A stretch of DNA of 54,661 bases from the IMG/VR virus record IMGVR_UViG_3300021962_000133, positions 1 to 54,661 of that record; one strand, 5' to 3'. The position numbers and the translations under genes are program-made. The notes under the pieces were generated by a model. That model searched no databases. It saw nothing but the letters and a program-made list of their open reading frames with translations, and was not told where the DNA came from. This DNA is from a virus (Duplodnaviria; Caudoviricetes). This document shows positions 15,619 to 50,028 of this stretch, piece after piece; the first letter of the stretch is position 1; each line of letters opens with the position of its first letter.

Positions 15619-18600
15619 ATGGGAATAATAGTTACTAAGTTACCATCAAATGATAGAATATTAACTCCACAAGAGCAATCTTTAGTAGTTAATAAAGAAA
15701 TGACCAGAAAATTTGGTCAACCTGAAGATTTTATTGAATTACATGTTTATGATAATACTGATAAATTAATAAGATCTATTATTCCTTATAAAAATTATAG
15801 TGTACCTAATAATGGTGTTACAGGTGATGTTGATGCAACAACAGAATTATCATTTGACCCAGCTTTTGATATACAACAATTAGGTTTTAGTAGAGGTTCA
15901 TTTATAACAGATTATAATGTTTTAAGACCTAAAATTTATTTAGGTGTTGAAAGAGTATTTTTTATAAAAGAAATATCAAGTGATAGACTTGAATTAAGAT
16001 TAAATTCAACAGAATTACCTAATAACTTAATATTAAGTGGAGGTTCATCTTTTATAAATGAATTTTATGGTACTCCATATTTTAAAGAATTTTATTTAAA
16101 TTTTGGTCAAAACAGATTTATTCCTGCTGTTAATATAGCTTTAGATTTAAGTGATGACAAATATTCTGTTTTAATTAAATTAATTAATCCATTACCTGTT
16201 GAATTTACTCAAAATGATAGAATAGGTATAGTTGATAAATTATCAATTGATGATAGATTTTCTGTTTCTATTACAATTGATATAACACCCCCAGCTTTAC
16301 CAACATTAAGACCAGCTAATTTTAATTTAGATACTGACTATTTAGTTGCTGGTTCTACTCCATATTACAATTATAATCAAATAACAAATGTAACAAGTTC
16401 TCAAAATCCTTTATTTCAAAGACTTTTAACTTATATGTCTTCATCAACATTCCAAATTAATGTTGATTATACAGATTATAATAATTTTATTCATTTTTCC
16501 TCAGCTACTGAAAGATTAAATGCTTTTCAATATAAAATTAATCAAATAGAATTATATAATAAGACAATAACTTCAGCTAGTTTAAGTTCAGCACCTGCTT
16601 CAGCTTTAACAGTTACTTCTTCTTTAAATTCTATTAATAAAATAATTAAAAGTTTTGATGGATATGAAAATTATTTATATTTTGAGTCAAGTTCATATGC
16701 TTGGCCTAAAATAAATAATACTAAACCATATCAATTATATTCTGTGTCAAGTTCACAAGTTATAACATGGTATAGTGGATCATATAATAGTGGATCAATA
16801 TATGATGATAATAACCAAAATTATTTATTAAACGCGTTACCTACTTATATTACTGATAATAGTAGTAATGAACAATTATTTACTTACATATCAGCTTTAG
16901 GTCAAATGTTTGATGAAATTTGGCTTTATATTAAAGCTATAGTTGATTTACATCAAGCAAAAAATAAATTATCTGAAGGTATATCTAAAGATTTAGTTTA
17001 TTATGCTTTACAATCTGTAGGTATTAAAGTATATACAGATGAAGATGGAACTGAAACATTTGATTATTTATATGGTGTTAACCAAAATGGAACATATCTC
17101 CCAGTTACATCATCATATCAAACATTAATATCATCTTCACAATATCAAACATCTGGTCAAGATCAAATTAAATCTTTTTATAAAAGATTATATAACAATC
17201 TACCAGCTTTATTAAAATCAAAAGGAACAAATAAATTCGCTGATTATTTATCTACAGTTTATGGTATTCCTGATACTATTTTAAGACCTTTAGAATTTGG
17301 TGGTACTGATAAAAATGAAAGTACTGTTGAATATAGTTTTGATAGATTTACATATACACTTCAAGTAAGTGGTTCTCAATACATTTATACTCCATGGACA
17401 ACTTTATCTTCATCATATGTTGATTCTGTTTATTCTGATAAATCTATAAATGCGTTTGAGTTTAGATTTAAACCTTTTGAAAATTCTTATATTCCTCCTA
17501 CTCAATCTTTAGCAGTTATTAGAAATTTTAATACTAATAATGATCCTGTTGTTGGTGTTACTTTAACTAAATATATTACTGGAAGTTATAATTATGGTGT
17601 AGTTAAACTTTATATGGATAATAATGGAGGTGGTTCTACAACTACTTATGCCACATTATCTTTAGATCCTTTACCAATATTTGTAACTAATTCTTTAGGT
17701 GAGTATAATTGGTATAATATATTAGTTCAAAGAGTTTTAGGATCTGATACATCTTATGTTGACTCCGGATATGTTAATTCAGGATATGTACTTGATGATA
17801 GTGATTACCTATATAACATATATGTTAAAAATGAAGTTGGAGGAGAAATAGGACATCAAGCCAGTGGTTCTTTAACAGGTTCAGTAGAAATTACAGATAT
17901 AGCTTGGAGTGGTAGTACTACCAAACAGTTAGTTATTGGAGGATATGATATTACACCTAATAATTCTATTTTTGGAAATAGATTTAGTGGTTCTTTACAA
18001 GAATTAAGATTGTGGGGAGTTCCATTATCTCAATCAAAATTTAATCATCATGTATTAAACCCAGAATCATTTGAAGGTAATGATACAACTTCTCCTTATG
18101 ATAAATTAGTAGGTAGATTTCCTTTAGGTAATGATTTATATACTTACAATCATTCTTTAACAACAAAAGTATATGGTGTTCAACCAAATATAAGTATGGC
18201 TTATAGCTCATCCGCTTATACTACATCATCATATATTTCAGCTAGTGGATTTTTGAACCAAAATAACTATGCTTCTTTTAAAGAAACATATTATACAAAT
18301 CCAGCTATTTCAACTTATACTAGTCCAGTAACTAGTAAAATTGATATTGTTAGTAGTAGTGTTTATGGTGATATTTTAACATTAAATCATTCTATTGTTC
18401 AATCTCCTATATTAACAAATACTACTGATATTCATTTATATCAATTTGGTTTCTCACCACAAGATGAAATAAATGAAGATATTATAGCTCATTTAGGAAC
18501 AACATATAATATAGATGATATAATAGGAAATCCTGAAGAAGCTAGTTCAACATCTTATGAAGATTTAACTTTATTACAAAATAAATACTTTAAAAAATAT

Positions 18601-20895
18601 CAAAAGAATTTTAATTATAAAGATTTTGAAACTTTAATAGATTATTTCCATAACTCTGTATTTAGGTTTATTAAAGATTTTACTCCTGGAAGAAGTAATA
18701 CAGCTACTGGTTTAATTTATAAACCACATATATTAGAAAGAAGTAAACAGGCTAGATATGAACCTTCTTATGAAACTATATTTTATACTGGTTCTATAGA
18801 AACAGAAACAATAAAAGGTGGATATGGAGGAGCATTGCCTGAAATTACTATATCATCAAGTTTGTATAATTTATACACACAAACAGGTTCAGTTCCTGTA
18901 GTTGGAAGTAATGAATATGCTTATAATGGAGAGTTAAGTGGTTCATTAATTGATGTTAATGATTATTATTTGTTTAAAAATCCATTCGCTATTCAAGGTT
19001 CTAATTTAAGTAATGTATATTACACATTCCCAGATTATGATCTATATCCACCACCATCAGGTCCTTCTATATATGATATAAATGTAAATGCTATTGGTGT
19101 TTATGTTTTAAATTTTCATTTAAATGCTTGTAATGCTGATTTAGAAGTAGAAGATGGTTTAGGAAACATAATATATAGTGTATCAGCTGGAACAGTAGGT
19201 CAATTTAATCTTACAGTTAATAATCCTGGATATTATGTTAGATTTATTAATACTGGTTTAAATGTTATTGGTGGTGGAAGAATAGGTTTAGATGTTATAG
19301 AATATTATCAACCATCTTTACTTCCTATTTTTAACCAACAGTATGAAGGATTTAACGCTGTTCAAAATAATGCTGAAGAAAATAGACTTTCTGAAAAAGC
19401 TAGATTAGTATCTTATAATGAAAATGGAACTGAAGTAACAAGTTTTGTTGAATTACAAGATGCTTTATATAATAGTTCTTTAGCTATACCTAGAATAGAT
19501 GGTACTAAAACAACTAGTGCTACTTATAATGAGTATTCTGATGGAGATACAACTTATGGTAAAACAGCTACTGTTGATAAAAGACAATCTTATTTTGCTT
19601 ATTGTGATTGGAATGGTGGATCTTTAGCTGAAAAACAAGGATCTTGGAATTACCATGTTAAATTTTTAGTTAATGAGGATGGTGTCACTTTAAATCCTAC
19701 AAATTTACTTTCGTATAATGGTGAATATAAACTAGGTTTATTTTCAAGCTTTGAATCAGGTGATGAAGTAAACGTCAGTTCAAATCCAGGATTTTCAACA
19801 GGATCAGATGCATCTACATATACTATTTTTAGACCAGGACAATTAGCTCAAACTATTATATACACAGATACAGGATCTCGTATTGGAGAAAATTATTTAA
19901 GATCTGGTTCTTTTAGTAGTATTAATTTTTATATTCCTTCTTCTTCTGTAGATGAACAAAAATTTGCTCTTACTGTTACTAGATCAGCAGACCAAAGTAT
20001 AAATTTGTCATCATGGAATGGAGAATATATACCTATCGAATTTGATGCTGTTACATTAGATGAAAAAAATGATTGGAATTTAACTAATTATCAATATACA
20101 TCTTCTTTTACTTCTGGTATTAATGCTAGAATCGCTCTACAATCAGTTATAACTAACCCAAATGCTTTACCTCTTAGTTGTTCAGCAATAATACTTAAAA
20201 ATAATAAAATTTTTGATTCAAGTTCATTTAATATACCTGCTGGAGGTACAGTTGCTCCTATATTAGCAGCTGTAAATAACAGTTGGAATATTAATGATAT
20301 TTATCAACCCGTATTACTACCTCTTACAACAACCCCAGGTTTTTATCCAACACCCTTATTATTAAAAAAATTAGCTGGTGCAGCTATATCTCAATTTAGA
20401 TTTTTTCCTTACACTGGTTCTATTACAATACAAAAAGGAGATTGTTGGTCAGTTGGAAATTCTACAAATGATACTGTGTTAACAGCTTCTGTAACTCTTG
20501 TAACTAGCCCTGGGTTAGCTAGAGTTTATGGTGGATCATATTATCAAGTTCCTTTTTCTGAATCTGGTTTTGACACTCCTCAAAAATTTACTTTACAATA
20601 TGGTGATGAAATTAGATTTATGGGTAATGAAGGTTTAGTAAGAACAATAATAAAAGTAGATTTTGATTCTAATGATGAAAAATTATTTGTTACTTTATCA
20701 GAACCTGTTAATAGTACTAAAATTGATATAGATTATTTTTCTATTAGAAGATATGTTGAAGATATTGGATTTATTATGATTAATGGAGCTGGTGGAACTA
20801 ATCCTACTTATGTATTTCCAAAATATCCAACTGAAAAATTAAAAAATAATTTATCAAAAATAATAGATGATCTTACACAGAAAGGACTACTTTAA
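15619..20895 (+). CDS. Large baseplate/tail protein with a LamG/ConA-like segment
   Basis: 1758 aa, S/T/N/Y-rich; LLKSKGT wedge-like motif; FSGSLQELRLW LamG-like motif. Confidence 0.7.
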   Translation: MGIIVTKLPSNDRILTPQEQSLVVNKEMTRKFGQPEDFIELHVYDNTDKLIRSIIPYKNYSVPNNGVTGDVDATTELSFDPAFDIQQLGFSRGSFITDYNVLRPKIYLGVERVFFIKEISSDRLELRLNSTELPNNLILSGGSSFINEFYGTPYFKEFYLNFGQNRFIPAVNIALDLSDDKYSVLIKLINPLPVEFTQNDRIGIVDKLSIDDRFSVSITIDITPPALPTLRPANFNLDTDYLVAGSTPYYNYNQITNVTSSQNPLFQRLLTYMSSSTFQINVDYTDYNNFIHFSSATERLNAFQYKINQIELYNKTITSASLSSAPASALTVTSSLNSINKIIKSFDGYENYLYFESSSYAWPKINNTKPYQLYSVSSSQVITWYSGSYNSGSIYDDNNQNYLLNALPTYITDNSSNEQLFTYISALGQMFDEIWLYIKAIVDLHQAKNKLSEGISKDLVYYALQSVGIKVYTDEDGTETFDYLYGVNQNGTYLPVTSSYQTLISSSQYQTSGQDQIKSFYKRLYNNLPALLKSKGTNKFADYLSTVYGIPDTILRPLEFGGTDKNESTVEYSFDRFTYTLQVSGSQYIYTPWTTLSSSYVDSVYSDKSINAFEFRFKPFENSYIPPTQSLAVIRNFNTNNDPVVGVTLTKYITGSYNYGVVKLYMDNNGGGSTTTYATLSLDPLPIFVTNSLGEYNWYNILVQRVLGSDTSYVDSGYVNSGYVLDDSDYLYNIYVKNEVGGEIGHQASGSLTGSVEITDIAWSGSTTKQLVIGGYDITPNNSIFGNRFSGSLQELRLWGVPLSQSKFNHHVLNPESFEGNDTTSPYDKLVGRFPLGNDLYTYNHSLTTKVYGVQPNISMAYSSSAYTTSSYISASGFLNQNNYASFKETYYTNPAISTYTSPVTSKIDIVSSSVYGDILTLNHSIVQSPILTNTTDIHLYQFGFSPQDEINEDIIAHLGTTYNIDDIIGNPEEASSTSYEDLTLLQNKYFKKYQKNFNYKDFETLIDYFHNSVFRFIKDFTPGRSNTATGLIYKPHILERSKQARYEPSYETIFYTGSIETETIKGGYGGALPEITISSSLYNLYTQTGSVPVVGSNEYAYNGELSGSLIDVNDYYLFKNPFAIQGSNLSNVYYTFPDYDLYPPPSGPSIYDINVNAIGVYVLNFHLNACNADLEVEDGLGNIIYSVSAGTVGQFNLTVNNPGYYVRFINTGLNVIGGGRIGLDVIEYYQPSLLPIFNQQYEGFNAVQNNAEENRLSEKARLVSYNENGTEVTSFVELQDALYNSSLAIPRIDGTKTTSATYNEYSDGDTTYGKTATVDKRQSYFAYCDWNGGSLAEKQGSWNYHVKFLVNEDGVTLNPTNLLSYNGEYKLGLFSSFESGDEVNVSSNPGFSTGSDASTYTIFRPGQLAQTIIYTDTGSRIGENYLRSGSFSSINFYIPSSSVDEQKFALTVTRSADQSINLSSWNGEYIPIEFDAVTLDEKNDWNLTNYQYTSSFTSGINARIALQSVITNPNALPLSCSAIILKNNKIFDSSSFNIPAGGTVAPILAAVNNSWNINDIYQPVLLPLTTTPGFYPTPLLLKKLAGAAISQFRFFPYTGSITIQKGDCWSVGNSTNDTVLTASVTLVTSPGLARVYGGSYYQVPFSESGFDTPQKFTLQYGDEIRFMGNEGLVRTIIKVDFDSNDEKLFVTLSEPVNSTKIDIDYFSIRRYVEDIGFIMINGAGGTNPTYVFPKYPTEKLKNNLSKIIDDLTQKGLL

Positions 20896-26582: not shown

Positions 26583-27260
26583 ATGGAAAAACAAATTTTA
26601 TCTAAAGAATTTTTAAAAATGCAAAAATTGGCTGGTTTAATTACTGAAAGTCAATTTAAACAATTAACTGAGCTTAAACAAGGGGATAAATTTAAAGGAG
26701 GTTTTGTATTGGCTTCAAATGATGATAATGATATTCCAGATACTGAATTTCAAGAATTATTAAAACTATCTAAGGATAAGGGTGTTACTAAAGATAATTT
26801 TGTAGTTATTTCTACAATAAATGATGAAAGGGTAAGGATTGATGGAGATTATAGTGGTAAACAGTTGGTATACTTAATAAAAAACAAACCTGAAATCTAT
26901 CAAATTAAAAATCCATCTTTAGTTAATGAAGTACGTACATCTTATCGAAAAGGTGATGATATATTTGATATTATAGATGCTGATGTTCTCCAACCAGACA
27001 TAGAGAAATATAGTTCGAAAAGTAGTGAATTGTTTGATGAACCTGGAATAGATAGATATAAAGGAGGTGTTGGATTTAAAACAGGCCGTCAAAAGGATAG
27101 AAATGGAAATTTTACATATACAGAAGAACAAAAAGAAAATTATTTGAAATATTTAAAGAAAAAAGTAGATGAAGGAAATGAAGTAGCTCAAGAGTTATTT
27201 AAAATAGCTAAAAAACTTCCTGAAGTACAATATCTTGTTAAACGATTAAACCTTAATTAA
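26583..27260 (+). CDS. Hypothetical protein with scaffold-like KMQKLAGLITE N-terminus
   Basis: 225 aa; own ATATTTAT motif and downstream terminator. Confidence 0.8.
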   Translation: MEKQILSKEFLKMQKLAGLITESQFKQLTELKQGDKFKGGFVLASNDDNDIPDTEFQELLKLSKDKGVTKDNFVVISTINDERVRIDGDYSGKQLVYLIKNKPEIYQIKNPSLVNEVRTSYRKGDDIFDIIDADVLQPDIEKYSSKSSELFDEPGIDRYKGGVGFKTGRQKDRNGNFTYTEEQKENYLKYLKKKVDEGNEVAQELFKIAKKLPEVQYLVKRLNLN

Positions 27261-38188: not shown

Positions 38189-39154
38189 ATGAGCTCACAT
38201 TTTAATACGCCTGAATTTGACCATAAGGCTTTCGCTAAGTATTTAGCTGAAAACAAATTAACATCTTCTAGTAGACTTCATTCATTAAATGAAGGTATTG
38301 AAGAAGCAGTACCATTTGAAAAAGATGCTTTAGATGAAGAATTAACAGTAGCAGATATTAATAAAAAATATACTGAAATGCTTAATAAAAACAAAGCCAC
38401 AACTTTATCAGATGTAGCTAAAGCTTTAGGTGTAACAGAAAAAGAAATGGCTAAAGCTTTCTTTAAATCTTCTTTAAAATTAAAAGAAAATGAAGAATTA
38501 GAAGAAATGGCTAATTTCTTTAAAATCACTAAAGACCAAAAAGATAAACTTAATCCAGACAAATATGTAGGTACTAAAAAATTAGTAGCTCAAGCATTAA
38601 AAGGAGATGAAGTTGAAGCTGATCAACCATTCACTAAAGCAACTATTAAAGCTATTATAGGTAAAGATCCATTAAAAGATTTTAATTCTGTATTAGACGC
38701 TGAAGAAATTGGTGCTTTAGGAAAAACATCAGATGTTAATCCACAAGAACCAAAAACACCAGGTGTTAGAGGTCGCAAACCAGGAACTTCTACCCCAACT
38801 AAAAAAGAACCATCTATGTCAATGGCTAAAGATAAAGTTGTTGGTGTTAGAGATATTGATGGACCAAGATCAGCTGATGTAACTGCCGCTGAAAAAGAAT
38901 TAGGTGGAGCTAAAGGTATTGAAAGAACAATTGCTATTGATAAAGCAGGCAAAGCTATTATTGCTAAATTAAAAGATAGTAAAGATAAACTTATTGATCC
39001 TAAATTTAAAGAAGCTAAACGTTTAGCATTTATATCTTATTTAACTCGTTCAAAAGCTGAAGGTGGTAAAATTGGTTTAAGAAAAGGTGGTGAAACTTAT
39101 ACTAACTTGTTACAAGTTTGGGACAATACAGTTGAAGATTTAATTTCTAAATGA
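38189..39154 (+). CDS. Putative internal head protein
   Basis: FDHKAFAKYLAENKL leader; several L-x-E sites; RGRKP; ATATTTATA upstream. Confidence 0.6.
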   Translation: MSSHFNTPEFDHKAFAKYLAENKLTSSSRLHSLNEGIEEAVPFEKDALDEELTVADINKKYTEMLNKNKATTLSDVAKALGVTEKEMAKAFFKSSLKLKENEELEEMANFFKITKDQKDKLNPDKYVGTKKLVAQALKGDEVEADQPFTKATIKAIIGKDPLKDFNSVLDAEEIGALGKTSDVNPQEPKTPGVRGRKPGTSTPTKKEPSMSMAKDKVVGVRDIDGPRSADVTAAEKELGGAKGIERTIAIDKAGKAIIAKLKDSKDKLIDPKFKEAKRLAFISYLTRSKAEGGKIGLRKGGETYTNLLQVWDNTVEDLISK

Positions 39155-39486: not shown

Positions 39487-39817
39487 TTCAACGGTAATAG
39501 TTCCTATTAAATCATTAAAAAACGCTCTTTTAGTTAAAGTTGAAAGAGATAATCTTAAAAAAGAATTAGTTATTGCTCGTGATTCAATAAAAGCTATGGA
39601 CACTATTATTTTTAGAAAAGATATTATAATTAGTGTTTTAGACTCTACTCGTGTTGTTTTAGATAGTAAAGTTAAAGATTTGAATGGAGTAATTATAGCT
39701 AAAGATGGTATTATAAATGAAAAAAGTAAAAAAATTACAAAATTAAATAATACAATTAAAAAATTAACTGGAGCATTTATGATTTCAGTTGTAGGTTTTA
39801 TTATAGCACTTTTATGA
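39410..39817 (+). CDS. Signal peptide + coiled coil + C-terminal TM protein (possible spanin partner)
   Basis: MKKNIIASIICLMMISSASS signal; terminal GAFMISVVGFIIALL; overlaps the previous ORF. Confidence 0.6.
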   Translation: MKKNIIASIICLMMISSASSQQRLTDSTVIVPIKSLKNALLVKVERDNLKKELVIARDSIKAMDTIIFRKDIIISVLDSTRVVLDSKVKDLNGVIIAKDGIINEKSKKITKLNNTIKKLTGAFMISVVGFIIALL

Positions 39818-41412
39818 GTGAACAACAACCCCAAGATATAAAAACTTTAATTAGACAGGAGTACATTAAATGTGCTAGTGATCCTGTTTATTTTATGAAA
39901 AAATATTATTGGATTCAACACCCAACAAGAGGTAGAACCCAATTTAATCTATACCCATTCCAGGAAAAAGTATTAAATTTATTTCAAGATAATAGTTACA
40001 ATATAGTAAATAAATCTAGACAGTTAGGTATATCAACATTAGTTGGTGCTTATACTTTATGGATGATGTTGTTTCAAAAAGATAAAAATATACTTTGTAT
40101 AGCTACAAAACAAGAAACAGCAAAAAACTTAGTAACTAAAGTTAAATTTGGTTATGAAAATTTACCAAGTTGGCTTAAATTAAAAGCAATAGAAAACAAT
40201 AAATTATCACTTAAACTAGCTAATGGTTCTCAAATTAAAGCAGTATCAGCGGCTAGTGATTCAGGTCGAAGTGAAGCAGTTTCATTATTAATCATTGATG
40301 AAGCAGCATTTATTGACAATATTGAAGAAATATTTGCTAGTGCTCAACAAACCTTAGCTACTGGTGGTGGTTGTATAGCTATATCTACACCTTATGGTAC
40401 AGGTAACTGGTTTCATAAAACATGGATTAAAGCTGAAGCTAAAGATAATAGCTTTTTACCAATTAGATTACCATGGACTGTACACCCAGAACGAGATCAA
40501 AAATGGAGAGATACACAAACTTCTGACTTAGGACCTAGATTAGCTGCCCAAGAGTGTGATTGTGATTTTAGTACATCTGGTGATACAGCTATTGAACCAG
40601 AAATATTAAATTGGTATATAGAAACATATCAAAAAGATCCAATTGAAAGAAGAGGCATTGATGGAAATTATTGGATTTGGGAACATCCAGATTTTTCAAG
40701 AACATATGTAGTTACAGCTGATGTAGCTAGAGGTGATGGTAAAGATTTTTCAGCATTTCATGTTATTGATGTAGACTCAAATACTCAAGTAGCAGAATAT
40801 AAAGGACAATTAGGTACTAGAGATTATGGTAATTTTTTAGTAGGTGTAGCAGTTGAATATAATGATGCTTTATTAGTTATAGAAAACGCTACTTATGGTT
40901 GGGATGTAATTCAAACAGCTATTGATAGAGGTTATAGGAATCTTTATTATTCTCCTAAATCAGATACAGCTTTAACTAATGTTGAAATGTATCTTGATAG
41001 ATATGAAAATGGAAATGGTATGGTTCCTGGATTTACTAATTCTCTTCGTACAAGACCGCTTGTTATCTCAAAACTTATTAGTTATATTCATGAACGTTCA
41101 GTTACTATACAATCAAAAAGATTGTTAGAGGAATTTAGAACATTTATTTGGAAAAATGGAAAAGCACAGTCTATGGATGGTTATAATGATGATTTGGTTT
41201 TAAGTTTTGGATTTGCTATGTTTTTAAGAGATACTAGCTTACGTTTTAAACAAACAGGAATTGATTTAGCTAGAGCTAGTTTAAATAGTATATCTAGTGG
41301 TTATATGCCTGTTATGTCAAATAATCATACTCCACATAATGTACATAATGATCCATGGACAATGGATGATGGTATGGGAGGAAAAGAAAATTTAAACTGG
41401 CTTATAGGATAA
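39814..41412 (+). CDS. gp17: Terminase large subunit
   Basis: LYPFQ, KSRQLGIST, IIDEAAF, ISTP, ADVARGDGKD, NDDLV. Confidence 0.95.
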   Translation: MSEQQPQDIKTLIRQEYIKCASDPVYFMKKYYWIQHPTRGRTQFNLYPFQEKVLNLFQDNSYNIVNKSRQLGISTLVGAYTLWMMLFQKDKNILCIATKQETAKNLVTKVKFGYENLPSWLKLKAIENNKLSLKLANGSQIKAVSAASDSGRSEAVSLLIIDEAAFIDNIEEIFASAQQTLATGGGCIAISTPYGTGNWFHKTWIKAEAKDNSFLPIRLPWTVHPERDQKWRDTQTSDLGPRLAAQECDCDFSTSGDTAIEPEILNWYIETYQKDPIERRGIDGNYWIWEHPDFSRTYVVTADVARGDGKDFSAFHVIDVDSNTQVAEYKGQLGTRDYGNFLVGVAVEYNDALLVIENATYGWDVIQTAIDRGYRNLYYSPKSDTALTNVEMYLDRYENGNGMVPGFTNSLRTRPLVISKLISYIHERSVTIQSKRLLEEFRTFIWKNGKAQSMDGYNDDLVLSFGFAMFLRDTSLRFKQTGIDLARASLNSISSGYMPVMSNNHTPHNVHNDPWTMDDGMGGKENLNWLIG

Positions 41413-41429
41413 TAAATATTTATATATAA

Positions 41430-43313
41430 ATGGCAAATACTTCTTTATTTGGAAGACTACAAAGATTATTCTCATCTGATGTTGTTATTAGAAACACAGG
41501 TGGAAATCAGTTATCCGTTATGGATACTGATAGAATTCAATCTTTAGGTGTTCTACAAACAAACTCACTGGTTGATAGATTTCAAAAAATCTATACAACT
41601 TCAGGTCCTGGAATTTATAATTTAAATTCTGCTCAAAACTATCAAAACATTCGTGTTCAGTTATATGCTGATTATGAATCAATGGACACAGATGCTATTG
41701 TTTCTTCTGTATTAGATATTGTTTCAGATGAATGTACTTTAAAAAATGAACAAGGTGAAGTTTTACAAATTAGATCAAGTGATGAAAATATTCAAAAGAT
41801 TCTTTATAATTTATTTTATGATGTATTGAATGTTGAATTTAATCTTTGGTCTTGGACTCGCAATATGTGTAAATATGGTGACTTCTATTTAAAATTAGAA
41901 ATTGCTGAAAAATATGGGATATATAATGTTATTCCATTCTCAGCATACACAATGATTAGAGAAGAAGGAACAGATCAACAAAATCCAGCTTATGTTAGAT
42001 TTAGATATGATCCAACAGCAGCTACAGGTGTAACAGCTAATTATGCTTCATATGCTGGCCAAGATACAGGTATTTTATTCCAAAATTATGAAATAGCTCA
42101 CTTCCGTTTAATTAATGATGTTAATTATTTACCTTATGGTAGATCATATCTTGAACCAGGAAGAAAATTATTTAAACAGTATGTATTAATGGAAGATGCT
42201 ATGTTAATCCATAGAATTGTACGTGCCCCTGAAAAACGTGTTTTCTATGTTAATGTAGGTAATATTCCACCAAATGAAGTTGAAAACTATATGCAACGTA
42301 TGATGCAAAAAGTTAAGAAAACTCCATTTATTGATCCTAATACTGGTAATTATAATTTGAAATTTAACATGCAAAACATGTTAGAAGATATTTATATTCC
42401 TGTTAGAGGTGGTGACTCAACAACAAAAATTGACACAGCTAAAGGATTAGAATATAACGGTATTGAAGATGTAGCTTATTTAAGAGAAAAATTATTCGCC
42501 GCTCTAAAAGTACCTAAAGCTTATTTAGGATATGAAAAAGATTTAAGTGGTAAAGCTACATTAGCAGCTGAAGATATTAGATTTGCACGTACTGTTGAAC
42601 GTATCCAGCGTATATTATTAAGTGAATTAACTAAAATTGCTTTAGTGCATTTATATACTCAAGGTTATGATAATGAAACTTTAACTAACTTTGAATTAGG
42701 ATTAACAACTCCATCTATCATTTATGATCAAGAAAGAGTAGCATTAATGAAAGAAAAAGTTGATTTAGCTTCATCTATTTTAGAAACTAATCTATTACCT
42801 TCAAATTGGATTTATGATAATGTATTCCATTTTAGTGAAGATCAATTTGATGAATATAGAGACTTAGTAGCTGAAGATAAAAAACGTACCTTTAGACTTA
42901 AACAAATAGAAGAAGAAGGTAATGATCCAGCTGAAACAGGTCAAGTATATGGTACACCTCACCAATTAGCTAATGCTTATGGTAAAGGAAGATATACAAC
43001 TAGTAGAGATGTACCTGCTGGATTTGATGAAAATGATCCTAATATTGTAAATATGCCTGGTAGACCTCAAGAAAAACCATCATTTATTAATACTCAAAAT
43101 GATCCCTTTGGTAGAGATCGATTAGGAGTTGATTCTATGAAAGGTAAATATAAAGATGATGAAGAAATTAGAGAAACTATAAAAAAATCTGTACCTGCTA
43201 CAGCTATATATTTACAAAATAAAAATATGTTTGATGGATTACCTCGACAAACTAATATGTTTAAAGGAAGTAGTTTATTAAATGAAGAAAATATCCGTGA
43301 GGAACTGAAATAA
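41430..43313 (+). CDS. gp20: Portal protein
   Basis: LMEDAMLIHRIVRAPEKRVFYVNVGN, MLEDIYIPVRG, LFAALKVP. Confidence 0.95.
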   Translation: MANTSLFGRLQRLFSSDVVIRNTGGNQLSVMDTDRIQSLGVLQTNSLVDRFQKIYTTSGPGIYNLNSAQNYQNIRVQLYADYESMDTDAIVSSVLDIVSDECTLKNEQGEVLQIRSSDENIQKILYNLFYDVLNVEFNLWSWTRNMCKYGDFYLKLEIAEKYGIYNVIPFSAYTMIREEGTDQQNPAYVRFRYDPTAATGVTANYASYAGQDTGILFQNYEIAHFRLINDVNYLPYGRSYLEPGRKLFKQYVLMEDAMLIHRIVRAPEKRVFYVNVGNIPPNEVENYMQRMMQKVKKTPFIDPNTGNYNLKFNMQNMLEDIYIPVRGGDSTTKIDTAKGLEYNGIEDVAYLREKLFAALKVPKAYLGYEKDLSGKATLAAEDIRFARTVERIQRILLSELTKIALVHLYTQGYDNETLTNFELGLTTPSIIYDQERVALMKEKVDLASSILETNLLPSNWIYDNVFHFSEDQFDEYRDLVAEDKKRTFRLKQIEEEGNDPAETGQVYGTPHQLANAYGKGRYTTSRDVPAGFDENDPNIVNMPGRPQEKPSFINTQNDPFGRDRLGVDSMKGKYKDDEEIRETIKKSVPATAIYLQNKNMFDGLPRQTNMFKGSSLLNEENIREELK

Positions 43314-44919: not shown

Positions 44920-46446
44920 ATGGCTACTACAAACGAATATCTTAAATCACTTATGTCAGTAATTCCTGACATTGATAAAGCTAACCCATTTGAAGTTCAA
45001 AGAGGTCTTGACTATGAATTAGTTAAGATGGGTGGAGAAGTAACTAATGAAACAGTTAAAAAAGCTTTAGTTAAAGCTGTTAAGAATGTACTTTCTGATG
45101 CTAATTACTATACTCATTTGTTAGAAGATGCCACTTATGAAATGTTAGGTGTTAAAAAACCTAATAGAAAAAAAGAAGTAGCTAGTACTGAAATGGAAGA
45201 AGTTAAAAAGAAAGATAACATGGCTCCAAATCAGATGACAAAAGCTAAAGTAGTTAAAGAATCTTTAGAAGAAAAAAGAAAAAATCCATCTGATTTTGTC
45301 ATTATGGATGTTCCTCTTTTTATTCGTATGCTTGAATATGCTCGTGAAGACGCTACTTCAGACATGGATCTTCATGATGTAGCTGAAAAATTAATTAAAT
45401 TAAGTGCTACAGGAAAACCTGTAACAATGAAATTTTATAATTCTATTGTATCTAAAAAAGAACCAGTTAAAGCTAAACCTGAACCTAAAAAGGTTGAGCC
45501 TAAAACAGATGAACCTAAAACAGGTGAAAAATTAAATGAAAAAAAGAAACTAAAAATGCCTGATTTTCCAGATGTTGATGGTGATGGTGATAGAGAAGAA
45601 CCAATAGTTAAAGCTACTAAAGATAAGAAAAAAGCTCTTAAAGAATCAATTAGAGAAGATATTGATTTAGGTCATGAAGATGACGAACCAGACATGTTAA
45701 AAGCTAGTGTTTATCGTATAGCTAAATATGCTGTTGAATTATATAAAATGCTTGACAAATATGATCAAATGGAAGATGAAGTTGATTTTCCTGATTGGTG
45801 GCAAGAAAAAATTCATTTAGCTAAAGATTATTTAGTTAAAGCTAAACATTATCTTGATTTTGAAGAAAAACAACCATCATTAGATGCTATGGTTTCAATG
45901 AATGAAGCTATAGACGGAACAAAAAAATATCAACAACCATCATCAGATATTAAAACTTTTGATACTGAAGAAGTTATCTTACAAAAAATATATGGTAATA
46001 ATTTAAAGAATTTAAAAAAATATTCTGTAGGATCTTATACTGGTGATTTAGGTGATATGAAAAGTGCATTTTTTATGTTTGCTCCATCAGGTAATAATTT
46101 TAAAGTATATAAATCTTCTATTGATTTTGAAGAATATATAGATAAAGCTAAAAATGTTCCTGCTAATGAATTATATCCAATTCAACAAGAATTTTTAAAG
46201 AAAGCTATTGACACTGTATTCTATAGAATGCCTAAAATGACTAAACAACCAACATCATTAAAAGAAATTGAATTAACTAAAGAAAATGTTGAGTTAATTA
46301 AAAAAACAATTAAAAAAATGATGGAAGGAGCTGTTGAATTTACAGTAGCTGGAAAACCTAGTTATGTTACTCCTCAAGAAGCTTCAGCTTATGAACAAGA
46401 CTTAAAGCGTAAAGGAGTTAAATACACAAAAAGAACTATTCAATAA
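44920..46446 (+). CDS. Multi-module putative prohead core/internal protein
   Basis: Modules separated by VKESLEE, LNE, LKESIRE, MNE, LKE; DVDGDGD Ca-loop-like motif. Confidence 0.65.
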   Translation: MATTNEYLKSLMSVIPDIDKANPFEVQRGLDYELVKMGGEVTNETVKKALVKAVKNVLSDANYYTHLLEDATYEMLGVKKPNRKKEVASTEMEEVKKKDNMAPNQMTKAKVVKESLEEKRKNPSDFVIMDVPLFIRMLEYAREDATSDMDLHDVAEKLIKLSATGKPVTMKFYNSIVSKKEPVKAKPEPKKVEPKTDEPKTGEKLNEKKKLKMPDFPDVDGDGDREEPIVKATKDKKKALKESIREDIDLGHEDDEPDMLKASVYRIAKYAVELYKMLDKYDQMEDEVDFPDWWQEKIHLAKDYLVKAKHYLDFEEKQPSLDAMVSMNEAIDGTKKYQQPSSDIKTFDTEEVILQKIYGNNLKNLKKYSVGSYTGDLGDMKSAFFMFAPSGNNFKVYKSSIDFEEYIDKAKNVPANELYPIQQEFLKKAIDTVFYRMPKMTKQPTSLKEIELTKENVELIKKTIKKMMEGAVEFTVAGKPSYVTPQEASAYEQDLKRKGVKYTKRTIQ

Positions 46447-47078
46447 TGTCAAAACAAGTACTTATAGAATATTTACCCTTCAAGATTAGTCCTCAATCAT
46501 TGATGGAGGCTAAACTTGGCCCTACAAAAAACTTAGTTGTAGAAGGAGTTGTTCAACGTGCTAACTCTTTAAATGCTAATAAAAGAGTATATCCTGAACC
46601 AGTTTTAAAACGTGAAGTAGAAAAATATATTTCTGGTCCAATAGCTCAAAACAGAGCACTTGGTGAATTAGATCATCCAGATTCATCTATCATCAACTTA
46701 AGAAATGTTTGCCATAATATTAAAAAATTATGGTGGGAGGGTGATGATTTAATGGGTCGTATTGAAATTCTACCCACACCATCAGGTAATATTTTACGTG
46801 ATTTATTTTTAAATAATATTACTGTAGGTATTTCTTCTCGTGGTATGGGTTCAGTAAAATCATTAGGTGAAGGAACAGTAGAAGTACAAGATGATTTTGA
46901 GTTAGTATGTTGGGACTTTGTTAGTACACCATCAACTCAAGGTGCTTATATGGATGTTGTTGGATTAAGTGAATCATACAACCCAAACAATACAAACACT
47001 TACAACAAATATCAAAGAGTTAATCAAATAATTACAGATATTATTTGTTCTCAAACTGGTGTTTGTTGTATAAAATAA
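46446..47078 (+). CDS. gp21: Prohead protease
   Basis: NANKRVYP, LGELDHP, GISSRGMGS, WDFVSTPS. Confidence 0.95.
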   Translation: MSKQVLIEYLPFKISPQSLMEAKLGPTKNLVVEGVVQRANSLNANKRVYPEPVLKREVEKYISGPIAQNRALGELDHPDSSIINLRNVCHNIKKLWWEGDDLMGRIEILPTPSGNILRDLFLNNITVGISSRGMGSVKSLGEGTVEVQDDFELVCWDFVSTPSTQGAYMDVVGLSESYNPNNTNTYNKYQRVNQIITDIICSQTGVCCIK

Positions 47079-47229
47079 AGTTTCTTTTTAAAGGACGCGT
47101 TTTTATATTTCCTTATATATTTATATCTGTCCTTTATACGTGATCTCTAATATCACGTGACTGATTTGTAAAATCCGCTATATTACTTTTTTAATAAGTA
47201 ATTGAAAACCAAAAAATTTTAAAAATTAA

Positions 47230-48324
47230 ATGAAAAACAAAGAATTATTTGAACAGGCTATTGCCGATGCTAAAGCTGTACGTGATACTGCTGTAGCGAA
47301 CGCCAAACTTGCTCTTGAAGAAACTTTAGCCCCACGTATCATGTCTATGATTCAAACTAAACTTTCAGAAATGGAAGAAGAAGTTGAAGAATCAGAAGAA
47401 ATGATGAAAGATGAAGCTTACGAAAAAGAGGAAGAAGGTAAAATGATGAAAACTGATGAAGTTGAAGAAACTGATGAAGCTTATGAAGAATTTGCTGAAG
47501 CTGATGAAGATGATTACGGCCTTGACAACAACATGGAAGAAGGTGACATCACAGAAGCTGATTTAGAAGAAATCTTAGCTGAATTAGAAGCTGAAGCTTT
47601 AGAAGAAAAAAGAAAAGCCAAGAAACCATCTGAAGAAAAAGAAAAAGAAGAAGAAGATGAGATGAATGAAGGCATGGGAGCTTATGAGTATGAAGAAGGT
47701 AAAGAAGAAGGTGAAAAAGAAGCTGAAATGGAAGAAATGAAAAAATCTTCTGACAAAATTTCAGTTGATGAACTCCGTAATATTATCCGTGATGTATTCA
47801 TGAGTGAAATGGACAAAACTGATGAAGCTGAAGAAGAAAAAGGTGAAATGGAAGAAGATTTCAATCTTGAAGAAATTTTAGCTGAATTAGATGAAGCCGA
47901 AAAAGAAGAAGAAGGAAAAATGGAAGAAGCTAAAAAAGCTAAAAAAGATGATGAAGAAAAAGAAGAGATGAAAAAGGAATTAAAAGAAGCTATCAAAACT
48001 ATCAATATCCTTAAGTCTGAACTTAACGAAGTTAATCTTTTGAATGCTAAACTTCTTTACATGAACAAAATCTTTAAATCTAAGAACTTAAGCGAAGGTC
48101 AAAAGTTAAAAGTTATCAATGCCCTTGATAGAGCTGCTAACTTGAACGAAGCTAAGAATATTTATGAAACATTAAAAGATGCTTTAGTTGAAACTAAAAA
48201 ATCAACTATTAAAGAATCTGTAGGTTTTGCCTCAAAACCAATGGGTGTTGCTCCTGCCAAGACCATTGTTAATGAGGACGTGCAAGTGACACGTATGAAA
48301 AAATTAGCAGGTATTATTAAATAA
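47230..48324 (+). CDS. gp22: Prohead scaffolding protein
   Basis: Very E-rich coiled coil between protease and capsid; ends RMKKLAGIIK. Confidence 0.85.
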   Translation: MKNKELFEQAIADAKAVRDTAVANAKLALEETLAPRIMSMIQTKLSEMEEEVEESEEMMKDEAYEKEEEGKMMKTDEVEETDEAYEEFAEADEDDYGLDNNMEEGDITEADLEEILAELEAEALEEKRKAKKPSEEKEKEEEDEMNEGMGAYEYEEGKEEGEKEAEMEEMKKSSDKISVDELRNIIRDVFMSEMDKTDEAEEEKGEMEEDFNLEEILAELDEAEKEEEGKMEEAKKAKKDDEEKEEMKKELKEAIKTINILKSELNEVNLLNAKLLYMNKIFKSKNLSEGQKLKVINALDRAANLNEAKNIYETLKDALVETKKSTIKESVGFASKPMGVAPAKTIVNEDVQVTRMKKLAGIIK

Positions 48325-48348: not shown

Positions 48349-50028
48349 ATGAGCACAATTAACTCTCTTTTAGAATCCACTACTGGTTGGCAGTCAGCTC
48401 AAACTGATGCTGTCCGCTTAGCCTCTAGGTGGGAAAAATCAGGTCTTTTAGAAGGACTTGAAGACACAAACCGCAATACAATGGCGGTATTATTAGAAAA
48501 CCAAGCTAAGCAATTAGTAGTTGAAGCTAACACTACAGCTGGTACTTCTGACTTCACAAACGGTACTGGTGCCCAATGGGCTGGTATCGCCTTACCAATG
48601 GTTCGTAAGGTATTTGGTCAGATTGCTGCTAAAGAATTTGTTAGTGTTCAGCCAATGTCATTGCCAGCTGGTTTAGTATTCTTCTTAGATTACCAATATG
48701 GTACTAACAAAAAAGCTCCAGGAGCTGGTTTGTCAGACGGTGATAGCTTGTATGGTACTCCAACAGCTAACTTTGGTAACGCTGCTTCTGGTGGTTTGTA
48801 TGGTGCTGGCCGTTTTGGTTATTCTATTAACCAATTCAGTTCTTCATTAGTAGGAGCTACTATTACTTCAGCTTCTTATGCTGATGTTGATTTTGATACT
48901 AATTTTACAGCTTCTATTGTTGGTGGTGTTGATTCAGCTCTCTTAACTGTTAAGAAATTTACTTTTGCCACTTCATCATTAACTTTTGGTGGTGTTGTAA
49001 ACTTTGATGTTAATGGTATTTCGGCTTTCGCTATTGAATCTGGTTCAGGTGCTACTGTAACTCCAAGCCAAGTATTAGGTCAATTTACTAAAATTAACGG
49101 TGGTAATATTGAATTCTTTGTAACTGCTTCTAGCACAGGTATTGCTCCTAACGCTGATGGTACTTACAAAATTTACTACAATAGACAAGATACTATCCGT
49201 AACCGTGGTGATTTTGAAGATCAGAACCCATTTGCTTTACAAGCTAACGCTAATGATTCTGTAACAATTCCAATTCCACAAATTAACATCCAGTTAAGAA
49301 ATGAAACTATCTCAGCTAAGACTCGTAAGTTAAAAGCTCAGTGGACACCTGAATTCGCTCAAGATTTGAACGCTTATCAGAATGTTGACGCTGAAGCTGA
49401 ATTAACTTCTATTTTAAGCGAGTACATTTCTATGGAAATTGATCTTGAAATCTTAGGTATGTTGATTGAAAATGCCGCTACAACTGACTTCTGGTCAGCT
49501 AAAGTTGGTAACCAAATCAATGCTACTCAAACTGGATTCAATTCTAACACAGCTGGTGTTTATTACACTCAAATGTCTTGGTTCCAAACAATTGGTATTA
49601 AGTTGCAGAAACTTTCTAACATTATTCACCAGAGAACCTTACGTGGTGGTGCTAACTTCTTAGTATGTTCTCCAGCTGTAGGTACTGTATTAGAATCAAT
49701 CCCAGGATTTGCTGCTGATTCAGCTGCTGATGCTGATGCTATGAAGTATGCGTTTGGTGTTCAGAAAATTGGTTCATTGAACAGCCGCTATAAAGTTTAC
49801 AAAAACCCATACATGACACAAAACGTGATCTTGTTAGGTTTCCGTGGAACTCAGTTCTTGGAAGCTGGTGCTGTCTATGCTCCATACATTCCATTGATCA
49901 TGACTCCATTAGTGTACGATCCTGATACCTTCACTCCAAACAAAGGTATTATGACTCGTTATGCTAAGAAGATGATTCGTCCTGAATTCTATGCTAACTT
50001 GTTTGTTTCTGATTTAAACATTGTCTAA
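48349..50028 (+). CDS. gp23: Major capsid protein
   Basis: LLENQ, VSVQPMSLPAGLVF, AKTRKLKAQWTPEFAQDL, YAPYIPL, GIMTRY. Confidence 0.97.
   Translation: MSTINSLLESTTGWQSAQTDAVRLASRWEKSGLLEGLEDTNRNTMAVLLENQAKQLVVEANTTAGTSDFTNGTGAQWAGIALPMVRKVFGQIAAKEFVSVQPMSLPAGLVFFLDYQYGTNKKAPGAGLSDGDSLYGTPTANFGNAASGGLYGAGRFGYSINQFSSSLVGATITSASYADVDFDTNFTASIVGGVDSALLTVKKFTFATSSLTFGGVVNFDVNGISAFAIESGSGATVTPSQVLGQFTKINGGNIEFFVTASSTGIAPNADGTYKIYYNRQDTIRNRGDFEDQNPFALQANANDSVTIPIPQINIQLRNETISAKTRKLKAQWTPEFAQDLNAYQNVDAEAELTSILSEYISMEIDLEILGMLIENAATTDFWSAKVGNQINATQTGFNSNTAGVYYTQMSWFQTIGIKLQKLSNIIHQRTLRGGANFLVCSPAVGTVLESIPGFAADSAADADAMKYAFGVQKIGSLNSRYKVYKNPYMTQNVILLGFRGTQFLEAGAVYAPYIPLIMTPLVYDPDTFTPNKGIMTRYAKKMIRPEFYANLFVSDLNIV

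Follow-up and report, generated by a model that had tools for sequence, protein, structure and literature searches.

A short peptide that terminates the head-scaffolding protein of a T4-type phage was found also to initiate hundreds of otherwise unrelated, small phage proteins, immediately before a motif of the type cut by the head protease, which indicates that it probably directs these proteins into the capsid, as does the known targeting sequence of phage T4. The analysed DNA (hereafter the window) is the whole 54,661-nucleotide record IMGVR_UViG_3300021962_000133 (28.5% G+C), probably a genome fragment since complete relatives are 155-163 kb. In the window, ORF 26583-27260 (ORF26583) starts MEKQILSKEFLKMQKLAGLITE, whereas the protein considered to be the scaffold (47230-48324) ends RMKKLAGIIK. 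The features relevant to this work are as follows.

26583..27260 (+): ORF26583, 225 aa, an N-terminal tag followed by a cargo domain without assigned function.
26598..26648 (+): the tag, residues 6-22 (LSKEFLKMQKLAGLITE), with a predicted helix at residues 8-16 followed by a non-helical "hook" (AGLIT) and ending in the putative cleavage site I-T-E22.
26664..26672 (+): second possible protease site, L-T-E (residues 28-30).
39814..41412 (+): large terminase subunit (Pfam Terminase_6N, E 8e-12).
41430..43313 (+): portal protein of the T4 gp20 family (PF07230, E 3.8e-69).
46446..47078 (+): prohead protease of the T4 gp21 family (Peptidase_S77; PF03420, E 1.1e-30; phrog_207, E 1.3e-54).
47230..48324 (+): head scaffolding (core) protein, 364 aa, with a very acidic middle part.
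48292..48321 (+): scaffold C-terminal motif RMKKLAGIIK (residues 355-364), which runs to the last residue before the stop.
48349..50028 (+): major capsid protein of the T4 gp23 family (PF07068, E 9.6e-76).

The window thus carries a T4-type head module, composed of the large terminase, the portal, three unannotated ORFs, the protease, the acidic 364-aa protein, the capsid protein and PhoH. The acidic protein was designated the scaffold because the order protease, acidic protein, capsid protein matches that of genes 21, 22 and 23 of the T-even phage PP01. It has no Pfam family, and across 14 homologues it presents a conserved N-terminal helix and a conserved C-terminal domain of about 120 aa. 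The comparison of 14 scaffolds with PP01 gp22 by hhalign gave only a weak, local match (probability 6.9%, E 0.005; NLTESQKVKV against DLTESQKEKV). The protease is 33% identical to PP01 gp21, with the HP and SSRG motifs aligned and the residues aligned to PP01 H85 and S140 kept, these being the catalytic residues. Both proteases have L-I-E near the N-terminus. [quoted passage not shown]

The preliminary description had pointed out the presence of the scaffold's C-terminal motif at the N-terminus of an unrelated protein, with an I-T-E site after it, and this observation proved correct. ORF26583 begins MEKQILSKEFLKMQKLAGLITESQFKQL and the scaffold ends VNEDVQVTRMKKLAGIIK followed by the stop, with the pattern [RK]M..LAG[IL] occurring only at these two places in the six-frame translation of the window. 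I-T-E follows the motif in ORF26583 at residues 20-22, and L-T-E follows at residues 28-30. The two proteins share nothing else, as BLASTP found only KMQKLAGLI against RMKKLAGII (6/9 identities, E 0.22 for that single comparison), the window's scaffold having V where tags have F and K where tags have Q. Taken within the window alone, therefore, the match is not better than chance, and a fortuitous resemblance between short lysine- and leucine-rich sequences in an AT-rich genome could be considered. This possibility is very unlikely, however, and is already contradicted by comparative data. A profile HMM built only from N-terminal tags of other contigs, run on the six-frame window, scored ORF26583 at 41.5 bits (E 2.8e-12) and the scaffold C-terminus at 14.0 bits (E 1.3e-3), with the next hit being noise at 5.5 bits (E 0.6).

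Conservation of the motif in homologous scaffolds, whose absence had been named beforehand as a reason to abandon the proposal, was confirmed in 15 of 15 scaffold homologues examined, all of which end with R-x-x-x-L-A-(G/F/D) two to five residues before the stop. Three of these were found by tblastn, namely those of Flavobacterium phage immuto (SRWQKLAGIIK), Microcystis phage Mel-JY01 (ERMKKLAGIVK) and an uncultured 484-kb phage, LR756508 (SRMQKLADIS). The other 12 were all the scaffold homologues present in the metagenomic loci retrieved, with endings such as AFARMQKLAGIKK, AFARMQQLAGLRK, YLRMQKLAGII, DRFKKLAGII and a variant, RMRELAFGNNK. In the 14-sequence alignment, R355, L359, A360 and G361 are invariant. 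Several scaffolds of relatives read N-[ED]-A-F-A-R-M-Q-K-L-A-G, which is closer to the tag than the window's own scaffold is, and match the tag over 12 or more residues; the scaffold end (N-E-A-F-A-R-M-Q-K-L-A-G-I) and the tag (N-K-E-F-L-K-M-Q-K-L-A-G-L) agree at N, F, M, Q, K, L, A and G.

The N-terminal copy behaves as a constrained and portable element. ORF26583 has 7 homologues besides itself in a set of 5.8 billion proteins, down to 43% identity, and in all 8 family members E9, F10 and M13-Q24 are invariant and form the most conserved stretch of the protein. Around the second possible protease site, K26, Q27 and L28 are invariant, residue 29 is T or V, and residue 30 is E in 7 of 8 rows. 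In phage immuto, a 154-aa protein (gene 187) begins MKKQILSEQFRRMQKLAGIITESQF, sharing 19/27 N-terminal residues with ORF26583 (E 3e-10) and no other similarity. An exact scan of IMG/VR viral contigs for the back-translated pattern M-Q-K-L-A-G-[ILF]-I-T-E returned at least 119 loci, which held 125 in-frame matches: 107 N-terminal, 3 probably N-terminal, 7 C-terminal and 8 internal. Typical starts are MNKEFLKMQKLAGLITE and MKKQILSEEFRRMQKLAGIITE, and several loci carry two or three tagged ORFs. Three complete genomes carry 2-5 motif copies each (scaffold copy, where identified, included), with 0 hits for the reversed-pattern control. After addition of relaxed matches, at least 120 unique N-terminally tagged proteins were collected, whose 108 complete cargos fall into 70 BLAST clusters. 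Finally, a profile of 108 tags (32 positions) searched against 1.84 billion representative proteins found 1598 clusters at E<=1e-3 and 47 at E<=1e-10. Among the best 150 of these, 147 carry the tag at the N-terminus, the median length is 128 aa, 125 cargos form 85 clusters, and cargos are mostly acidic (median pI 4.6, with 78% below pI 6). Three proteins of 874-1005 aa have the tag near both ends, and one 304-aa protein has a second tag in the middle. A DNA-level element (promoter or recombination cassette) was rejected as the main cause of the tag's conservation because the invariant L, A and G use 6, 4 and 4 different codons, meaning that selection acts on the peptide.

The cargos are almost entirely unannotated. 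For ORF26583 itself, Pfam gave no family, PHROGs a single weak hit, and tblastn of the whole protein against 50,697 phage records no match. Its AlphaFold2 model (mean pLDDT 76.6) found no match in the PDB by Foldseek at E<=0.001 (best 0.79). Pfam named only 7 families among 70 cargo representatives, and PHROGs matched 1 of 70. One tagged cargo from another locus is a 2H phosphoesterase that matches the anti-CBASS Acb1 family just under its cut-off (26.8 against 27 bits, E 4.9e-6), which hints at, but does not establish, anti-defence cargo.

The tag is nearly always followed by [L/I]-x-E, the motif after which gp21 cuts (PMC9026906). Because the scan pattern itself demanded I-T-E, the 20 unique N-terminal tags that do not fit it were examined separately, and 17 of them have [LI]-x-E within the 9 residues after LAG (INE, IAE, LNE, IKE, ILE and others), against 7.3% for control windows in the cargos. 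Scaffold copies have no such site and simply end. In the AlphaFold2 model of ORF26583, DSSP assigns helix to residues 8-16, coil to 17-21 and a new helix to 22-29, so that the putative cleavage site would be contained in an exposed hook following a helix.

In terms of distribution, the tag appears to be phage-specific. The same pattern occurs once in 596 billion bases of bacterial and archaeal genomes, and that one match lies in a head module (protease, tagged ORF, scaffold, capsid) on a contig of a Flavobacteriaceae MAG. Among cultured phages only the immuto phages carry it. Many tag-bearing loci are relatives of the phage studied here, and in some of them a small tagged ORF sits between the protease and scaffold genes, although the window has none at this position. 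The scaffold motif has the wider distribution, since Mel-JY01 and the 484-kb phage have it but the pattern scan found no N-terminal tags in them. This suggests that the tag derives from the scaffold end, a direction of evolution that remains an inference, as it also was in the preliminary description, where the peptide was said to mimic the scaffold.

The explanation favoured here, with moderate confidence, is that the first ~22 residues of ORF26583 form a capsid-targeting propeptide, the core of which, EF-x-[KR]-MQKLAG-[LI]-I, is the same helix-plus-hook peptide that ends the phage's own scaffolding protein. In this view, the tag would occupy during prohead assembly the site used by the scaffold C-terminus, most likely on the inner face or N-terminal arm of the gp23-like capsid protein and less likely on the scaffold core itself, and the tagged protein would thereby be enclosed in the prohead. 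The gp21-family protease would then cut after I-T-E22, and perhaps after L-T-E30, freeing a mature protein of about 200 aa inside the head, which would probably be ejected with the DNA. ORF26583 would be one member of a very large, hypervariable set of mostly small, acidic, unannotated proteins carrying this leader in immuto-like T4-type phages of Flavobacteriaceae, which resembles the diverse internal proteins of T-even phages. What the sequences demonstrate is the motif, its conservation, portability and position in the proteins, the adjacent [L/I]-x-E, and the presence of the protease, scaffold and capsid genes; binding, packaging, cleavage and ejection are all inferred, without proteomic, structural or genetic data for any tagged protein. 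The preliminary description had interpreted the peptide as a second address tag, mimicking a coat-binding helix of the scaffold so that the protein is packaged and then released by the protease, and this interpretation is only partly supported, its sequence-level elements holding while coat binding, packaging and release remain inferences. Prediction of a complex between the capsid protein (alignment of 8) and residues 1-40 of ORF26583 scored 0.00 in two runs without controls, in which the partner's own fold was uncertain, and counts neither for nor against binding.

The organization just described is that of the capsid targeting sequence (CTS) of T-even internal proteins (IPI, IPII, IPIII and relatives; Mullaney & Black 1996, as reviewed in PMC3012670, PMC9026906 and PMC9958956), in which otherwise unrelated, hypervariable small proteins share only a 10-residue leader that is removed by gp21. 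The annotated internal proteins of PP01 begin MKTYQEFI[TA]E, and PP01 IpIV has F-I-T-E where the window has L-I-T-E. The same T4-type portal, protease, scaffold and capsid gene set is present, and tags near both ends of some proteins recall the propeptides at both ends of T4 Alt (PMC9026906). For the T4 CTS, a change of the E of the cleavage site to D is reported to give packaging without cleavage (PMC9026906). However, the leader does not resemble the T-even CTS in sequence, sharing only the terminal I-T-E with PP01 IpIV, and it is about twice as long (~17-22 residues). The core KLAG peptide is absent from T-even gp22, which ends differently, whereas here the leader is recognisably the scaffold's own C-terminal peptide, a relation that was not found stated for T4. 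In addition, the repertoire is far larger (1598 clusters), and the mostly acidic cargos contrast with the T4 internal proteins, described as basic (PMC9026906).

A second precedent is the C-terminal helix-and-hook shared by the phage 80alpha scaffolding protein and SaPI1 CpmB (Dearborn et al. 2017, PMC5644958), where the 16 C-terminal residues of the scaffold, ending RIIK, bind the N-arm of the capsid protein and the same amphipathic element is reused by a second, otherwise unrelated protein that gains access to the capsid interior. The window's scaffold ends GIIK, and a conserved terminal motif is found in 15 of 15 scaffolds, with helix and hook predicted for the N-terminal copy. In 80alpha both copies are C-terminal, the second protein belongs to a satellite and alters capsid size, and binding is shown by cryo-EM. 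Here the second copy is N-terminal, phage-encoded, followed by a putative cleavage site and present on hundreds of cargos, its binding being inferred only, and the capsid lineage also differs (gp23-type). In the giant phages phiKZ, 201phi2-1 and SPN3US, head-internal ejection/inner-body proteins are trimmed by a diverged gp21-like protease after a short x-x-E motif, S/A-x-E instead of L/I-x-E (PMC9026906), with no shared leader of this kind being mentioned in the text consulted. Engineered cargo loading by fusion to the P22 scaffold C-terminus and encapsulin cargo-loading peptides (PMC9962691, PMC8229669) also indicate that a short shell-binding peptide is enough to load arbitrary cargo into an HK97-fold shell, but the P22 case is engineered, encapsulins are not viral, and neither is known to be followed by proteolytic release.

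It is also possible, although considered unlikely, that the tag has the same role in prohead incorporation and protease release but a partner other than the capsid protein, such as the scaffold core (for example, the conserved C-terminal domain of the scaffold), the protease or the portal, in which case the scaffold's own terminal copy would serve scaffold self-assembly or protease recruitment. For T4, the targeting sequence is described as directing proteins into the scaffolding core, and internal proteins co-purify with gp22 (PMC3012670, PMC9026906). On the other hand, where scaffold termini have been resolved they bind the capsid protein (80alpha, PMC5644958), and the terminal helix followed by G-I-I-K resembles that helix-and-hook.

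If the favoured reading is true, cargo and scaffold would share, and compete for, one docking site, cargo being then released by the protease. This would give a concrete mechanism for capsid targeting sequences, a question that reviews of T4 call "mysterious", and a defined peptide for study in a cultured system, phage immuto. More tentatively, immuto-like phages would load their heads with a very large, fast-evolving arsenal of small, mostly acidic proteins (at least 1598 clusters at 50% identity in the present sample, almost all unannotated), each hijacking the scaffold's capsid-docking peptide as a cleavable N-terminal leader. The leader would then be a sequence-only marker of proteins injected with the DNA, which are candidate anti-defence effectors, a simple profile would label more than a thousand families of viral "dark matter" as virion-delivered, and the peptide would provide a natural cargo-loading element for T4-type capsids. 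Propeptide-based capsid targeting and reuse of a scaffold terminus are both already known, but no description of the present motif was found in print, supplementary files excluded: a full-text search for QKLAG returned only unrelated papers, searches on capsid targeting, propeptides and cargo revealed no such system, and none of the papers naming the immuto phages dealt with virion proteins, judging by title and abstract.

Some observations do not fit easily with a head-targeting role. ORF26583 does not lie in the head module but about 20 kb from it, among replication and nucleotide-metabolism genes (a primase-like ORF, an exonuclease-like ORF, a P-loop kinase, a nucleotidyltransferase-like ORF and a 5'-nucleotidase). 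This early/middle-type context, the acidic cargos and the Acb1-like enzyme, which could equally act in the cytoplasm, would be compatible with the KLAG peptide being a general interaction or regulatory module unrelated to the capsid (an oligomerisation helix, a degron or a docking motif for another phage or host hub) that the scaffold merely also carries. This alternative is regarded as unlikely, considering that the motif is fixed at the extreme C-terminus of every scaffold homologue examined, next to the capsid gene, that it is nearly always followed by the head protease's cleavage motif when N-terminal but not in scaffolds, that small tagged ORFs lie inside the head module of some relatives, and that it is virtually confined to phage contigs of one T4-type lineage.

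The KLAG peptide also ends, or lies inside, a family of coiled-coil proteins encoded just upstream of the large terminase gene, which are not obviously scaffolds; this occurrence of the tag would fit a general core-assembly adaptor, as in the alternative with a partner other than the capsid protein. Pfam gave nothing meaningful for 10 proteins (nine carrying the tag at the end or inside, plus window ORF 38189-39154), and the window has no homologue of them beyond the tag. In addition, a second, shorter leader (M-x(1-3)-L-x-x-[LIF]-[LIFV]-x-E, for example MIKLVDILFE; MIKLxDLLxE type) heads 8 of 62 plus-strand ORFs of the window, all between 25.8 and 34.5 kb and including a P-loop kinase and a 5'-nucleotidase, against 0.17 expected from its internal frequency, although the pattern was defined after the sequences had been seen, which inflates the significance of this excess. 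The same leader heads 45 of 1706 ORFs in the related loci, against 6.5 expected. Its format is closer to the T-even leader than that of the KLAG tag, and it may be a second targeting signal or the main one, which would leave the KLAG peptide another role; alternatively, both could be ordinary N-terminal helices. Some proteins present this leader at the N-terminus and the KLAG peptide at the C-terminus.

Besides the tag, a second shared leader of about 10 residues ending in [LIFV]-x-E heads eight neighbouring ORFs of the window, which start at the following positions:

25798, 29178, 30667, 31893, 32557, 33062, 33322 and 34065 (+ strand): ORFs beginning MIRLINLLLE, MIALKDLFLE, MRLISLLEE, MIKLLKLLSE, MTKLIDILGE, MKLVSLLVE, MIKLVDILFE and MINLLDILNE.

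This corresponds to 8 of 62 ORFs against 0.17 expected from the internal frequency, although the pattern was defined post hoc. Two of the eight are enzymes in which the leader precedes the Pfam domain, namely a P-loop kinase and an NT5C nucleotidase. The leader recurs in related loci, including on homologous kinases (45 of 1706 ORFs against 6.5 expected), and its format parallels that of the T-even CTS, MKTYQEFI[TA]E. The capsid protein itself starts MSTINSLLES.

In other tag-bearing loci (designated L followed by a number), mostly just upstream of the large-terminase homologue, a coiled-coil module of about 160 aa (IRESIQEYI..., followed by a long helix and an acidic linker) ends with NES[FT]L[KR]MQKLAG[IL]ITE. 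The module is found either alone (short forms, in L039, L051, L102, L109, L087 and L104) or fused behind a larger N-terminal part (long forms, in L018, L070, L077, L088, L091 and L124), and in some proteins another 95-165 aa follow the tag, as in a polyprotein. A Pfam search of these proteins gave no meaningful hits, and the window was found to have no homologue of them apart from the tag. It is possible that they represent a second core protein or a small-terminase-like protein.

Between the protease and scaffold genes of L076, L084, L046, L081, L037, L064 and L138, a small ORF of the head module carries the tag, which is followed after I-T-E by only about 12 residues (EEEYKA[RH]LWY.QY), with some copies presenting an extra N-terminal domain of 70-85 aa. 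The window has no ORF in the corresponding 150-base gap (47079-47229). Two further ORFs of the window were recorded:

44920-46446 (+): an unannotated 508-aa ORF lying between the portal and protease genes, in which a segment of about 65 aa (residues about 117-184) recurs at 50-67% identity in 13 of the tag-bearing loci, with no Pfam family matching it.
15619-20895 (+): a 1758-aa ORF with no Pfam family at E<=0.001.

Among the tagged proteins of other loci, one of 188 aa (L126:3425-3988, + strand) has two H-x-T motifs and matches the 2'-5' RNA ligase superfamily as well as Pfam Acb1 (anti-CBASS), the latter at 26.8 bits against a cut-off of 27. Some proteins carry the tag more than once. Among the proteins recovered with the tag profile (designated P), three large ones (P0012, P0013 and P0014; 874-1005 aa) carry it near both ends, while of P0011 and P0010 one, with 304 aa, has a second tag in the middle and the other, with 47 aa, has two tags in tandem. 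Finally, two adjacent immuto proteins, the products of genes 193 and 194 (L016:12588-13888), begin with another shared N-terminal peptide (..NLRSFLTENKLT.. and ..DLKKFLVENKLT..).
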